Of a stretch of 34,235 nucleotides of DNA, positions 3,667 to 26,658 are shown piece after piece; the stretch's first letter is position 1, and each line of letters opens with the position of its first letter. The translations under genes and the position numbers were made by a program. The notes beneath the pieces were generated by a model. That model searched no databases, was not told the DNA's origin, and saw nothing but the letters and a program-made list of their open reading frames with translations. Source of the DNA: Vulcanimicrobiota bacterium (GTDB taxonomy: Bacteria > Vulcanimicrobiota > Xenobia > Xenobiales > JADMJV01); NCBI GenBank assembly GCA_050250895.1, contig JBFWNU010000001.1, positions 3,913,002 to 3,947,236 on the forward strand, given 5' to 3'.

Positions 3667-3688
3667 CCTCAGCCAACAGTGCTAGAAT
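3667..3688 (+). promoter_or_regulatory. Shared promoter motif CCTCAG-N10-TAGAAT-N6-GTG (leaderless, extended -10)
   Basis: CCTCAG 3667-3672, TGc then TAGAAT 3683-3688, GTG 3695. Confidence 0.65.
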
Positions 3689-3694
3689 GGGCGG

Positions 3695-5440
3695 GTGCGT
3701 ATTGAACCTGTTTCCAACCAGCCAACGGCTGCCCCTGCTCGTCGAGCCGACACCGCCGCCAAGGTCGCAGAGCCACGCGATGGAGTCGGTCCCGCCCGAA
3801 CCACCGAGGACCCGAGTTATAAGGCTCGCTCGGACCTTTCGGCCGGGGAAGTTTCGGCCCCAAGGGTGGAAGAGCCCCACCACGAGGAGGATGTCGGAGT
3901 GCCGGTAGCCGTCTTGAAAGAGGTCACCCGCGAGGCCATGGAAAGCCGGGGCTTGACCATCGGCTTTTCCCCTGAGGCCCTCGAGCAGGTCGAGAAGATG
4001 GGTGGGCCGGTGCCGCTGGAGGGCGAGGGAGTGCGCGACCTGCGCCACCTCAAATGGGCCTCCATCGACAATGCCGACACCAAGGATATCGATCAACTCG
4101 CCTTCGCCGAGGACCTGGGCGGGGGACGCCGGCGGCTGCTGGTGGCCATCGCGGATGTCGCCGAGGCCTTCGACAAGGGGACACCCCTCGATGAGCAGTG
4201 TCAGCTGAATACCGTCACCGTCTACACTCCGGGCGAAGTCAATCCGATGCTGCCTAAGCAGATGTCCACCGACTGGACCTCGCTCAACCCCGACGCCGAC
4301 CGCCGGGCGTTGGTGACCGAACTCATCATCGGGGCCGACGGCGAGGTCGAGAAGTCGACCGTCTTCGAAGCGGCCGTCCGTAACCAGGCCAAGCTCGATT
4401 ACGTGACCGTTTCTGATTGGTATGAAAAAGGCGGCGAACCGCCGGCCGCCATGACCAGCCCCGAGATGCAAGAGCAGGTGCGGCTGCAGATGGATACCGG
4501 CCTGCTGTTGGGCCAGGCCGCCCAACGCCGGGGCGCGCTGGCCTTCGAGACCGACCGCGTGTTACCAGTAGTCGAGAATGGTCATCTGGTCGATCTGGTC
4601 AACGAAGAGAAGAACTCGGCCAACGAAGCGGTGGCTCATATGATGATCGCCACCAACGTGGCCAACGCCAGCTTTCTGCACGAGAAAGGATTTCCGGTTT
4701 TTCAGCGGGCGGTTCCCGAGCCGGGGCGTTGGGATCGGATGCGCGAGGTGGCCGCCCAGGCGGCCTCGCACCTGCCCGAAGGCAAGGAGATGGCGTCCGA
4801 GCTGGCTGTCTTGCCTGCCGACGCCGACCCGGCCGCTCTGGCCCGGTTTCTCGAGGAATACAAGGCACGCAACCCTGACGGCTACGGCGAGGTGTCGCTG
4901 AGTATGCTGAAGTTGATGGGCGGGAGTGACTATGTGGCCACGCCGCCGGGTGAGCCCTTGCAAGGCCATTTTGGCCAGGGGGTGAGTGGGGGCGACCTGG
5001 GTTACTTGCATTCCACCGCTCCCAATCGCCGCTATCCCGATGTGGTGGTGCAGCGGCTGCTCAAGGCCGCTTCGGCCGGCCAACCTTGTCCTTACACCAT
5101 GGAAGAGCTCGAGGCGATCGCCGACCGCTGCAACCAGCAAGAGAGCGCCGCCAAGGGGGCCGAACGCCAGGTCCGCAAAGCCGCTGTTTCGCACTATCTG
5201 GCCAGCCAAATCGGCGAGGAGTATGAAGCTGTGGTAACCGGCGACAATCCCAAGAAGGGCACCTTCGTGCGCGTAATGGACCCGCCCATCGAAGGTAAAC
5301 TGGTCGAGGGCTTCGAGGCCGTCGATGTGGGCGACAAGCTGCATATCCGCCTGAAGGCGGTCGACCTCGAGAAGGGTCACATCGACTTCGTCCGCACCTC
5401 CGAGGTGGAAGACGCCTCCAGCGCTCACCTGAGCAACTAG
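3695..5440 (+). CDS. RNB-domain (RNase II/R family) ribonuclease with C-terminal S1 domain and ~65-aa low-complexity N-terminal extension
   Basis: WASIDNADTKDIDQL, LLVAIADV, TVYTPG..PMLP and HSTAPNRRYPD motifs; C-terminal S1-like 'IGEEYEAVVTG...GHIDF'. Confidence 0.9.
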   Translation: MRIEPVSNQPTAAPARRADTAAKVAEPRDGVGPARTTEDPSYKARSDLSAGEVSAPRVEEPHHEEDVGVPVAVLKEVTREAMESRGLTIGFSPEALEQVEKMGGPVPLEGEGVRDLRHLKWASIDNADTKDIDQLAFAEDLGGGRRRLLVAIADVAEAFDKGTPLDEQCQLNTVTVYTPGEVNPMLPKQMSTDWTSLNPDADRRALVTELIIGADGEVEKSTVFEAAVRNQAKLDYVTVSDWYEKGGEPPAAMTSPEMQEQVRLQMDTGLLLGQAAQRRGALAFETDRVLPVVENGHLVDLVNEEKNSANEAVAHMMIATNVANASFLHEKGFPVFQRAVPEPGRWDRMREVAAQAASHLPEGKEMASELAVLPADADPAALARFLEEYKARNPDGYGEVSLSMLKLMGGSDYVATPPGEPLQGHFGQGVSGGDLGYLHSTAPNRRYPDVVVQRLLKAASAGQPCPYTMEELEAIADRCNQQESAAKGAERQVRKAAVSHYLASQIGEEYEAVVTGDNPKKGTFVRVMDPPIEGKLVEGFEAVDVGDKLHIRLKAVDLEKGHIDFVRTSEVEDASSAHLSN

Positions 5441-5504
5441 CCTCTATGCGACCGGATGCCCCGGCTTGACCCTTTTGGCCGCTTTGGCTCAACGGCGGCC
5501 TCGA

Positions 5505-5510
5505 TAAGAT
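5505..5510 (+). promoter_or_regulatory. -10 element TAAGAT 7 nt before ATG (probable leaderless transcript, no TTTCAG box)
   Basis: TAAGAT-cgaggcg-ATG(5518). Confidence 0.45.
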
Positions 5511-5517
5511 CGAGGCG

Positions 5518-24801: not shown

Positions 24802-24834
24802 AGCCTAGCCTTCGGCCGTGAAAAGACTATGAAA
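24802..24834 (-). promoter_or_regulatory. Shared promoter motif TTTCAT-N5-TTTCAC-N10-TAGGCT-N6-ATG
   Basis: Minus strand: TTTCAT 24834-24829, TTTCAC 24823-24818, TAGGCT 24807-24802, ATG 24795. Confidence 0.75.
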
Positions 24835-24870
24835 GGCAGGGTTCTGGGGCCGCTTCGGAAAGGGGAGGCT

Positions 24871-25821
24871 ATGCGCAAGTTCCTTCTGCTTCTGCTGTTG
24901 AGCCAGATGGCCCTGGCCGAACCGATGCTCGGCACCTACTCCATCGTGGCCCGTGACCCTCAGACCGGCCGTCTGGGCGTGGCCGTCGAGAGCCATTGGT
25001 TCAATGTTCGGGCGAACGTGCCCTGGGCTCGTCCGGGAGTGGGAGCAGCGGCTACGCAAGCCGCTACCAACTCGGCTTTCGGTTACCGTGGCCTGGCCCT
25101 GATGGCTCAAGGTGAGACGCCTCGGGCGGCCCTGACCAGGCTGCTGACCGAAGACTCGGGTGCGGCCCGCCGCCAGGTTGGCTATGTCGACGCCCAGGGG
25201 CGTACGGCTTCCTGGACCGGGGAACTGTGCATTCCGGCGGCGGTCTCGATCGAAGGCGAGCAGTTCGTGGTGCAGTCCAATCTGATGGACAAGGACACCG
25301 TGTCGCAAGCCATGGCGGAGGCCTTTCGTCAGTCTAGAGGGCCGCTGGAGTTTCGTCTACTGGCGGCCCTGAAAGCGGCTCAAAAAGAGGGCGGAGACTT
25401 GCGCGGCATGCAGAGTGCGGCCATGGTGGTGGTGGCTGCCAAGGACACCGGAAATCCCGTGGCCGACACCATCGTCGACCTGAGCGTCGAGGACCATCCT
25501 CACCCTCTGGAAGAGCTCGAGCGTTTGCTCGGCATGCATCAGGAGTATGCTTCCTACAACGCCATGATCAAGGCTGTCGATGACCACGACCCGGCCGCCC
25601 TCGAGCCTTTGCTGGCCAAGTTGTCACCCGAGAACCAGGAGTTGCGGTTCTGGGTGGCTCTCGAGCTCTATCGCAATGGGGCCCGCCACCGTGCCCTGGC
25701 TCTCTTCAAGCCGGTGTTCGAGGCCAACGATGCCTGGCGTGAACTCTTGCCCCGGCTGGTGCCGGCCGAGTTGCTGACCATAGAGCAGGTCAAGGCCATT
25801 CAGAAAGCCCTGCCTCGCTAA
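24871..25821 (+). CDS. DUF1028 family (Ntn-hydrolase-like) secreted protein
   Basis: GGAGG RBS; signal peptide; TYSIVARDP.TG.LGVAV.S, GVGAAATQA, RQV and GGDLRG.QSAA. Start reassigned to 24871. Confidence 0.88.
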   Translation: MRKFLLLLLLSQMALAEPMLGTYSIVARDPQTGRLGVAVESHWFNVRANVPWARPGVGAAATQAATNSAFGYRGLALMAQGETPRAALTRLLTEDSGAARRQVGYVDAQGRTASWTGELCIPAAVSIEGEQFVVQSNLMDKDTVSQAMAEAFRQSRGPLEFRLLAALKAAQKEGGDLRGMQSAAMVVVAAKDTGNPVADTIVDLSVEDHPHPLEELERLLGMHQEYASYNAMIKAVDDHDPAALEPLLAKLSPENQELRFWVALELYRNGARHRALALFKPVFEANDAWRELLPRLVPAELLTIEQVKAIQKALPR

Positions 25822-26630
25822 CGGGCGCGAAACACCTCAGCGATGTGGGCCTGCAGAGCCAGTTCTCGCTCTTTACCCAGGCGCACCTGGCTGGTCACGT
25901 CGTCATAGGCTTTCCAGGGGTCCAGGCCCAGCTTGAGCACGGCCCCGGTTCCGGCCCGGTCGGCTCGCTTTTCGATGGCTTCTTTCCAGTCTTTGTAGAG
26001 ACCCTCGACGGCAGCAGCCTCGGCCTTGAGCCCGCCCAACTTGAGCACTTTCTCGAGAGCCGTGCCGGCCACCATGCCGGCCGCATCGCCGGGCTGGTCT
26101 ACGTGGCCTAACTCGTGGCCCAGGGTGAAAGCCAGGGCCTCGTCGCTGGCCTGGTCGATGAAGCTGTCAGAAGCATAGACGCGACCGCCGGGGCGGGTCG
26201 AGGCGGGCTCGTAGTGAAGGGCTTCTTCGTGAGCCACGTAGAAACGTCCCTCGGGTAGCCCGCCAGCCTGGGTGATGGCCTGCCCCATCTTCCGCAGGCG
26301 TTGGGTGCGGTCCGTGGCGTCACCCTCGAGATTAAAGCTCAGGGCCTCGTGGCGCTGGTCGCCGAGTTCGGAAAACACCTCGGGACCCCATTGGTCTTGC
26401 ACGGCCAGCACGGCTGCCGCCATGGGCACGGGAATGCCGGCCACGGCCAGCGAGGCGGTGCTGGACAGGGCCTGCTGGACCTGGCGGGCCAGCAGGGCGG
26501 GCTCGTCGACGGTAGCTGGCGCGATTTCGACCAGGTCGTGGGGACCGGTCGCGTCGGACTCGGTCTGGCGGGCGAGTTGTCGACTCTGCTCGAGAAAGAC
26601 CCGGGCGAAGCGTGGATAGTCGATCCTCAT
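25818..26630 (-). CDS. M48-like zinc metallopeptidase with N-terminal extension
   Basis: PGGRVY, LAFTLGHELGHV (HExxH) and EKRAD. Confidence 0.78.
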   Translation of the reverse strand: MRIDYPRFARVFLEQSRQLARQTESDATGPHDLVEIAPATVDEPALLARQVQQALSSTASLAVAGIPVPMAAAVLAVQDQWGPEVFSELGDQRHEALSFNLEGDATDRTQRLRKMGQAITQAGGLPEGRFYVAHEEALHYEPASTRPGGRVYASDSFIDQASDEALAFTLGHELGHVDQPGDAAGMVAGTALEKVLKLGGLKAEAAAVEGLYKDWKEAIEKRADRAGTGAVLKLGLDPWKAYDDVTSQVRLGKERELALQAHIAEVFRAR

Positions 26631-26636
26631 TCGCCC

Positions 26637-26658
26637 AGTCTGGCAGTCCGCCCTGAAA
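26637..26658 (-). promoter_or_regulatory. Shared promoter motif TTTCAG-N10-CAGACT-N6-ATG
   Basis: Minus strand: TTTCAG 26658-26653, TGc then CAGACT 26642-26637, ATG 26630. Confidence 0.7.

Follow-up and report, generated by a model that had tools for sequence, protein, structure and literature searches.

A lineage-specific promoter class with a double TTTCAG box marks a dispersed gene set in a large-genome Eremiobacterota bacterium

Do scattered genes that begin at nearly the same distance from one short upstream box share a promoter, and if so, what reads that promoter and what do the genes encode? The question is raised by a stretch of 34,235 nucleotides (the window; C1:3913002-3947236) in assembly GCA_050250895.1, the 9.5 Mb genome of a large-genome Eremiobacterota bacterium (63% G+C, 17 contigs, 99.64% complete). 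In this window an earlier note, written from the sequence alone, had described eight transcription units with near-identical geometry, each comprising a TTTCAG box, a spacer of exactly 10 nt and a TAGNNT -10 hexamer ahead of a leaderless gene. We found that the element is in fact double, reading TTTCAG-N5-TTTCAG-N10-TAGnCT, with the start codon usually 6 nt further on; the single box of the note is the proximal copy, and a second copy lying 11 bp upstream of it had been overlooked. Furthermore, the element is not limited to a handful of genes, as it precedes some 350 transcription units across the genome and recurs in related genomes.

Genome-wide counts identified a rigid spacing between the proximal box and the -10 hexamer. 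Searches for TTTCAG-Nk-TANNNT returned 143 hits at k=10; the adjacent spacers, k=9 and k=11, gave 12 and 14, respectively, which bears out the exact 10-nt spacer. A second peak of 100 hits at k=21 corresponds to the second TTTCAG located 11 bp upstream. All other spacings between 0 and 30 yielded 5-41 hits, mostly 8-19, such that the peaks rise from a background of ~13, and for comparison TTGACA-N17-TANNNT occurs 87 times. Similarly, the literal pattern first described in the window, TTTCAG-N10-TAGNNT-N6-[AG]TG, was found 37 times in the genome, against 0-1 times at spacers of 8, 9, 11 and 12 nt. A logo of the 143 sites (tTTCAG-nnTTn-TTTCAG-N10-TAGnCT-N6-[A/G]TG) demonstrates that the upstream hexamer is as conserved as the proximal one, the two being separated by a T-rich spacer. 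When the genome was scanned with a weight matrix, as the note had suggested, 334 sites scored at least 20 bits, versus 4, 1 and 5 with three column-permuted matrices that served as controls, and the score distribution was bimodal; the 36-nt matrix was iterated and trained genome-wide. For the placement of sites relative to genes we relied on crude in-house gene calls from codon-usage log-odds (8,009 genes). Although these genes cover 89% of the genome, 277 of the 354 sites scoring at least 18 bits are fully intergenic, and 348 of the 354 are followed by a coding open reading frame (ORF) starting within 400 nt on the same strand, which is the sense in which genes are called box-driven here. At C4:250612-250683, two exact double-box promoters occupy opposite strands in a back-to-back arrangement with 6 bp between them.

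The distance from the -10 hexamer to the start codon is 6 nt at 134 sites, 7 nt at 30 and 5-9 nt at 196, such that the description of the genes as leaderless holds for ~55% of the 348 sites at which a downstream ORF was called; relative to the predicted start, the two hexamers lie at -39..-34 and -28..-23. Leaderless genes are common in this genome, with TANNNT exactly 6 nt before the start codon in ~450 genes above background and in a further ~150 at 7 nt, and the box class makes up about one third of them. Its -10 hexamer is nonetheless distinct from that of other leaderless promoters: position 3 is G in 63% of the box class versus ~32%, position 5 is C in 68% versus 33-43%, and the extended -10 G is weaker (40% versus 53-61%). 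No TTGACA-like signal is present at -35 in the box-class logos.

The same element was identified among relatives of the organism, which we group as the family of the window (f1), a second family of the same order (f2), a family of the same order with small genomes (f3) and a family of the same class (f4). An exact 15-base pattern was found in 15/15 f1, 5/5 f2 and 1/1 f4 genomes, with 2-25 hits in each f1 genome, as compared to 1 of 19 f3 genomes; a reversed control gave none. In an even sample of 151 genomes from the phylum, the pattern was present in 13/13 f1, 3/3 f2 and 2/2 f4 genomes, in none of 81 f14 or 10 f18 genomes, and with one or two hits each in a few others. The promoter class is thus confined to three related large-genome families and nearly absent elsewhere in the phylum. 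A small hidden regulon in f3 was considered and rejected, as TTTCAG-N10-TAGNCT occurred 0-4 times in five f3 genomes against 0-4 times for the control, with G025 the sole genome to stand out (4 versus 0). Among 20 exact-pattern sites from other genera, picked without regard to downstream sequence, only six have a start codon 6 nt past the -10 box. Most of the others carry a GGAG-type ribosome-binding site within ~50 nt, ahead of a start codon in the stretch inspected; in the stretches from loci L120, L122 and the 57-nt L128 there is none. The promoter is hence conserved, and the leaderless habit is stronger in the present genome.

What do these promoters drive? By a simple gap rule the units comprise 235 single genes, 58 pairs and larger groups of up to 10 genes, for a total of ~530 genes or 6-7% of the genome, so that the scattered gene set with a shared cis-element proposed for the window extends genome-wide, mostly as single-gene units. 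BLAST clustering sorts the 348 first-gene products into 273 groups, 239 of which are singletons. A Pfam census covered 176 of the 348 box proteins, drawn from loci that hold more than one box gene. Its two batches contained 62 and 32 families, and the 25 most frequent of each batch were examined; among these are acyltransferases (7), BamB-like propellers (5), amylases, P450s, and M48 and C92 peptidases. Also represented are a haem peroxidase, a GlpQ-type phosphodiesterase, a PI3/PI4-kinase-like protein, an InhA-like protease, endonuclease I, an MGDG synthase, PilZ proteins, MscL and a second SecA, together with enzymes of cytoplasmic appearance such as pyruvate kinase, adenylate kinase and peptide deformylase. 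The two largest box operons encode a Pel-like exopolysaccharide system and a sulphated-glycan module:

C7:128872-137762: Pel-like exopolysaccharide operon (PilZ, STAS, PelF-like, PelG, GAF, PilZ, TPR)
C1:2461935-2471463: glycan sulphation operon (PEP-utilising enzyme, GT2, APS kinase, sulfotransferase, deacetylase)

Despite this variety, the products share features at both ends. Of the 196 leaderless box proteins, 123 have Ile or Val as their third residue, and residues 4-5 of the group are rich in Gly, Ser and Pro. The frequency of Ile/Val-3 is 0.63 in leaderless and 0.41 in leadered box proteins, but 0.17 in a comparison set of 737 leaderless candidates that lack the box, and 0.15 across the full gene set. 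As non-box leaderless genes look average, Ile/Val-3 is not a by-product of leaderless translation, and leaderless translation was rejected as the cause of the N-terminal features. Across residues 2-15, box proteins are poor in Asp and Glu (3.7% versus 10.2%) and rich in Pro (10.2% versus 5.3%). A motif matching D-x-V-x-L(S/G), mostly at residues 22-36, was detected in 106/348 box proteins using a loose regular expression. Only 15/348 box proteins have a hydrophobic segment that begins within residues 1-20, versus 1978/8009 of all genes; the first such segment lies at residues 40-100 in 86/348 versus 646/8009 overall, and 176/348 have none at all. The second shared feature is a C-terminal tail described by a 24-residue profile, (E/D)(E/D)-x-L-x-V-G-D-x-x-V-x-V-x-x-(D/E). 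Its score is bimodal over 106,610 ORF ends and exceeds 10 bits in 102 ORFs, of which 69 have a box directly upstream, as compared to 348/8009 genes overall. The tail is hence present on about one fifth of box proteins (69/348), and at least one further tail ORF (window 19241-19921) occupies the second position in a box unit. The association that had been noted in the window between the box, unusual N-termini and a shared C-terminal motif is therefore statistically confirmed for the genome as a whole.

A GlpQ-type glycerophosphodiester phosphodiesterase encoded in the window (23018-24190) illustrates what the N-terminal module may do. Its f2 orthologues retain a 26-28-bit box, the 6-nt gap and an M-x-I start, whereas its closest homologues, in genus g2 and in genome G001 of the same genus, carry a classical signal peptide, MKRFLLLAALSLSAWA, and no box. 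An enzyme normally exported through Sec has thus exchanged its signal peptide for the box-associated N-terminus and, with it, the box promoter; no other observation speaks as strongly for a targeting role of the N-terminal module. Taken together, dispersed genes share one element, and their products share signal-like features without Sec signals; from these sequence features we infer that the box genes form a co-regulated secretome or effector set. The targeting system to which the motif points may be new in kind.

Returning to the window, all nine places described in the note, namely the eight units and a leadered variant before a DHH gene, were inspected and scored with the matrix. Six of the eight match the genome-wide motif at 21.8-28.4 bits and the leadered variant matches it at 21.7 bits, and the units starting at 3695 and 12073 do not match. 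The genome averages 1.28 sites per 34.2 kb, such that the seven found here make the window a hot spot. The sites are as follows:

7829..7861, plus strand: box promoter of the DHH gene; TTTCTA-N5-TTTTAG-N10-GATGCT; 21.7 bits
12796..12828, plus strand: box promoter; TATCAG-N5-TTTCAG-N10-TAGCCT; 27.6 bits; leaderless start 12835
14747..14779, plus strand: box promoter; ATTCCG-N5-TTTCAG-N10-TTAGACT region; 21.8 bits; leaderless start 14786
17967..17999, plus strand: box promoter; TTTAGG-N5-TTTCAG-N10-TAGGCT; 27.9 bits; 7-nt gap to start 18007
22979..23011, plus strand: box promoter; TTTCAG-N5-TTTCGG-N10-TATTCT; 28.4 bits; leaderless start 23018
24802..24834, minus strand: box promoter; TTTCAT-N5-TTTCAC-N10-TAGGCT; 27.8 bits; leaderless start 24795
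26637..26669, minus strand: box promoter; GTTGAG-N5-TTTCAG-N10-CAGACT; 24.6 bits; leaderless start 26630
12126..12158, minus strand: weak candidate box, uncertain; TCTTCA-N5-TTTCAG-N10-TAGAGC; 12.5 bits
3659..3694, plus strand: non-member, site of the RNase II-like gene starting at 3695; CCTCAG/TAGAAT; -9.9 bits; only a -10-like hexamer, 6 nt before GTG
12080..12121, minus strand: non-member, start at 12073; GCTCAC/TAGGAG; best score -11.8 bits at any spacing of 4-30; only a -10-like hexamer

The DHH/DHHA1 gene (7884-9344; DHHA1 Pfam match) has a predicted transcription start at ~7868, a 16-nt leader and an AAGGAG Shine-Dalgarno sequence. The product of 12835-13515 (226 aa, no Pfam match) ends in LSDEGVWIGNTYIPSLDP, which resembles the C-terminal tail by eye only, as the listed hidden Markov model scores for the tail include none for this protein. 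The tail is present on the 326-aa product of 14786-15766, which likewise has no Pfam match, and on both products of the two-gene unit 18007-19239 and 19241-19921, the second being listed among tail ORFs as C1:3931983-3932922 (window 18982-19921). In the GlpQ-type enzyme, a 72-aa N-terminal extension precedes the GDPD domain at residues 73-379. On the minus strand, 24187-24795 encodes a 202-aa protein with the tail, and was missed by the in-house gene caller owing to an overlapping ORF on the opposite strand; it overlaps the 5' part of the long TTG-start ORF 24304-25821 (plus strand), the true start of which is probably downstream of the longest-ORF start. The remaining unit, 25818-26630 (minus strand), encodes an M48-type peptidase-like protein (Peptidase_M48 match). 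The weak candidate would place a transcription start at ~12119, with 46 nt between it and the GTG start codon downstream at 12073 (ORF 11453-12073). Separately, an AT skew of -0.47 sets the 2-kb bin 32001-34000 far off the rest of the window; this bin falls within a long minus-strand ORF (31690-34233).

What, then, reads the element? A cis-element shared genome-wide and across relatives makes one trans-acting factor the economical inference, and a tandem 11-bp repeat set 10 bp from the -10 box, as in the pho box, favours a winged-helix activator. We therefore regard it as probable that the box defines a lineage-specific promoter class in which a tandem-bound winged-helix activator replaces the -35 element. 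In such a model, the two TTTCAG hexamers with their 11-bp period would stand in for the -35 element, and two copies of one activator, of the OmpR/PhoB or SARP type, would bind head-to-tail on one face of the DNA. By class II activation, the bound proteins would take over the role of a -35 contact and bring RNA polymerase to a -10 box, TAGnCT, positioned 6 nt before the transcription start, here usually the start codon itself, and some 350 transcription units would be switched on together. The closest known parallel is PhoB of Escherichia coli, for which the account of the pho box in PMC1906773 gives tandem direct repeats of 8 bp with a 3-bp linker, 10 bp upstream of TAN3T. Both systems comprise direct repeats with an 11-bp period, the last of them 10 bp before a TAN3T -10 box, and both lack a -35 consensus. 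They differ in that the present repeat is TTTCAG rather than CTGTCAT, and in that its ~350 targets are in many cases leaderless.

The genome encodes 29 Trans_reg_C proteins, of which 19 have the size of response regulators and ~10 are large and carry an N-terminal winged helix. A gene for an OmpR-type response regulator (C1:106829-107530) constitutes a mere lead: it lies on the same strand as a box-driven gene for a patatin-like phospholipase of ~1,050 aa (C1:102425-107530 region), two genes further on, after a DUF1684 gene and across a 321-nt gap. Another candidate, a protein joining an N-terminal Xre-type helix-turn-helix to an FlhA C-terminal domain (HTH_3-FlhA_C fusion, C1:2013808-2014935), was rejected because its distribution differs from that of the box, with full-length orthologues in 8/15 f1, 0/5 f2, 0/1 f4 and 0/19 f3 genomes.

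A number of observations count against this account of an activator-driven secretome. Start sites and co-expression are predictions from sequence, the gene calls are home-made, and the functional census covers 176 of the 348 proteins. No box stands directly before any of the 29 Trans_reg_C genes, and no regulator was found. The distinct -10 hexamer would also fit a separate sigma factor. Furthermore, the presence of cytoplasmic-looking enzymes and polysaccharide operons indicates that the regulon is not purely a secretome. Nor do the two protein features behave as a coupled pair: among box proteins, having D-x-V-x-L near the N-terminus shows no significant association with having the tail at the C-terminus (odds ratio 1.6, p = 0.16).

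The earlier note had left the choice between a dedicated activator and an alternative sigma factor; the repeat and the fixed spacing favour the former, while TAGnCT gives the latter some claim. An alternative sigma factor would read TAGnCT and the proximal TTTCAG directly, with no need of an activator, a reading to which we assign a low probability. In its favour are the -10 hexamer set apart from other leaderless promoters, the rigid spacing, and the precedent of effector regulons with a dedicated sigma factor, such as HrpL with the hrp box. Sigma-70-family factors use spacers of 15-19 bp, however, and the spacers observed here, of 10 or 21 bp, lie outside that range. In addition, two boxes 11 bp apart contribute similar information, and a sigma factor would not need the second copy. 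The invariant GG/GC pair of sigma-54, 10 bp apart, is also missing from the logo.

The remaining possibility, that the set is a Pho (phosphate-starvation) regulon read by a PhoB orthologue, is very improbable: the geometry is identical to that of the pho box, and members include the GlpQ-type phosphodiesterase, the DHH phosphoesterase, the patatin-like phospholipase, glycerol-3-phosphate oxidase-type enzymes, the MGDG synthase and a nuclease, but this nearly complete genome has no PstS-type (PBP_like_2) or PhoD match, such that the box cannot stand before core Pho genes; the majority of members are unknown proteins that have an N-terminus in common, most of the phylum lacks the element, and ~350 promoters far exceed the E. 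coli regulon of at least 8 operons and 39 genes given in the Pho overview of PMC1906773. The PstS family is present in 13 of 14 control genomes, unlike the present one.

Under the favoured activator model, the nearest functional parallels are regulons of dispersed effector genes. PmrA recognises a tandem repeat that directly precedes the -10 box, and Icm/Dot effectors carry a C-terminal signal. In Legionella, the winged-helix regulators PmrA and CpxR activate ~40 and ~30 scattered effector genes, respectively, by the figures in the relevant passage of PMC6989116. The Icm/Dot regulons of Legionella and Coxiella thus resemble the present set in linking a winged-helix response regulator, here only proposed, to dozens of scattered genes. 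They differ in that the signal common to the present proteins sits chiefly at the N-terminus, the present set is roughly ten-fold larger than that of PmrA, no VirB4 was found, and the organism belongs to a different, uncultured phylum. A second parallel is provided by plant pathogens, in which a promoter motif (the hrp box for HrpL, the PIP box for HrpX) marks dispersed secreted proteins, the N-termini of which have Ile, Leu, Val or Pro near position 3-4 without acidic residues. Those motifs differ from the present one in sequence and geometry and serve an injectisome, whereas only flagellar-type type III gene sets are found here.

By which route, then, might the box proteins be exported? The genome contains no matches to VipB, VirB4 or a phage-type sheath, and its two secretin genes are both far from the flagellar loci. 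There are two complete flagellar-type gene sets. Set A (C1:1458-1476 kb) comprises FliF, FliG, FliK, a short FlgE-like protein, FliM/N/O/P/Q/R, FlhB and FlhA. The set is ancestral; FlhA copies in f3, f2, f4 and genus g3 share 73-92% identity with the one encoded here, and the gene order is the same there. As no Flagellin_N match was detected in any of five f3 genomes (90-98% complete), set A may represent a flagellin-less flagellar-type export apparatus in that family. Set B, on the other hand, is scattered (C1:126-130, 545-547, 556-572 and 585-594 kb), specific to f1, f2 and f4, and encodes an FlhA only 40-44% identical to that of set A; genes for FliI, FliK, FlgD, FlgE, MotAB, flagellin and the L/P-ring give it the appearance of a complete motile flagellum. 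Box-bearing genomes also have 5-19 FHIPEP matches (3 in the 75%-complete G011) versus 2-3 in f3, corresponding to two full FlhA proteins and many proteins consisting of the FlhA C-terminal domain alone. Eight of the latter, with the cytoplasmic domain but without the membrane part, are encoded in the present genome, while f3 genomes have one such extra copy:

C6:529401-530381: FlhA C-terminal domain only
C1:2008860-2009774: FlhA C-terminal domain only
C1:2013982-2014740: FlhA C-terminal domain only
C1:2475431-2476438: FlhA C-terminal domain only
C1:1126976-1127566: FlhA C-terminal domain only
C7:117253-118194: FlhA C-terminal domain only
C7:121919-122905: FlhA C-terminal domain only
C8:31716-32150: FlhA C-terminal domain only

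One of the eight belongs to the helix-turn-helix fusion at C1:2013808-2014935 described above. Genes of this kind occur within ~4-12 kb of both of the largest box operons.

These gene sets raise the possibility that the regulon consists of substrates of flagellar-type type III export, with the N-terminal module acting as a bipartite signal like that of early flagellar subunits. We consider this doubtful, albeit the better of two candidate routes. Two complete gene sets, an FHIPEP expansion in box genomes relative to box-free f3, and the missing VirB4, type VI secretion sheath and phage-type sheath are consistent with it, as are N-termini poor in acidic residues. According to the relevant part of PMC8983047, early flagellar subunits require small hydrophobic amino acids within positions 2-5, together with a second motif that follows no fewer than 27 residues later. 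Ile/Val-3 followed by D-x-V-x-L at 22-36 resembles this layout, in that a hydrophobic residue at the extreme N-terminus is paired, as in FlgD and other early subunits, with a motif ~25-35 residues on. However, the second motif here is D-x-V-x-L-S and not the F-x-x-x-hydrophobic gate motif, and the box proteins are enzymes and unknowns rather than axial subunits. Set B, the lineage-specific one of the two, resembles an ordinary motile flagellum, its FlgD having the canonical FLNLL, and the ancestral set A is also present in box-free f3 genomes. No box lies within 25 kb of set B FlhA, and the nearest to set A FlhA is ~21 kb away. Finally, the genomes concerned are related, such that the co-occurrence amounts to one or two evolutionary events.

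The other candidate route, which appears less probable still, would make the N-terminal module the long cytoplasmic pre-region of an atypical Sec signal or signal-anchor, similar in role to extended signal peptides and perhaps served by a box-driven SecA paralogue. The excess of first hydrophobic segments at residues 40-100 points in this direction, as does an Ala/Gly-rich hydrophobic stretch just before the catalytic domain of the GlpQ-type enzyme. So, too, does the second SecA itself, a box-driven protein of 1,194 aa (C12:63314-66898) with a disordered Pro/Ala/Glu-rich N-terminal extension of 165 residues. Against it, 176 of the 348 box proteins lack any hydrophobic segment, extra SecA copies also occur in box-free f3 genera, and two box-bearing genomes have one SecA only; as its distribution does not track the box, the paralogue was rejected as a strict partner. 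Relatives have up to six SecA_DEAD matches, many of them in ORFs of 1,100-1,500 aa.

A bolder proposal, speculative and of low probability, combines the regulon with the first of these routes. The ~350 promoters and ~530 genes would constitute one switchable programme, the cargo of a non-Sec export system in large-genome Eremiobacterota. The N-terminus, with Ile/Val-3 and D-x-V-x-L some 25-35 residues in, would be a new bipartite signal read by a flagellar-type type III gate, aided by the free FlhA C-terminal-domain proteins, and the C-terminal tail E-E-x-L-x-V-G-D-x-x-V would serve as a second, independent docking tag.

To our knowledge, nothing is known of transcription signals in this phylum, and full-text literature searches returned no paper on the motif, or on secretion, type III or flagellar systems in Eremiobacterota. 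The 33-bp motif provides a direct handle on a hidden lifestyle programme of several hundred genes: it allows members to be listed from sequence alone in metagenome-assembled genomes, and offers a defined bait for the regulator. It also delimits a candidate new protein-targeting system in which an N-terminal module, often accompanied by a C-terminal tail, replaces Sec signals. Predation has been suggested, in the portion of Paoli et al. 2022 (PMC9259500) on the lineage, for a large-genome marine Eremiobacterota family, which is not necessarily that of the present genome. If the bolder proposal above is true, an uncultured, possibly predatory free-living lineage would possess an effector arsenal of Legionella size, one that could be read straight from a promoter motif.

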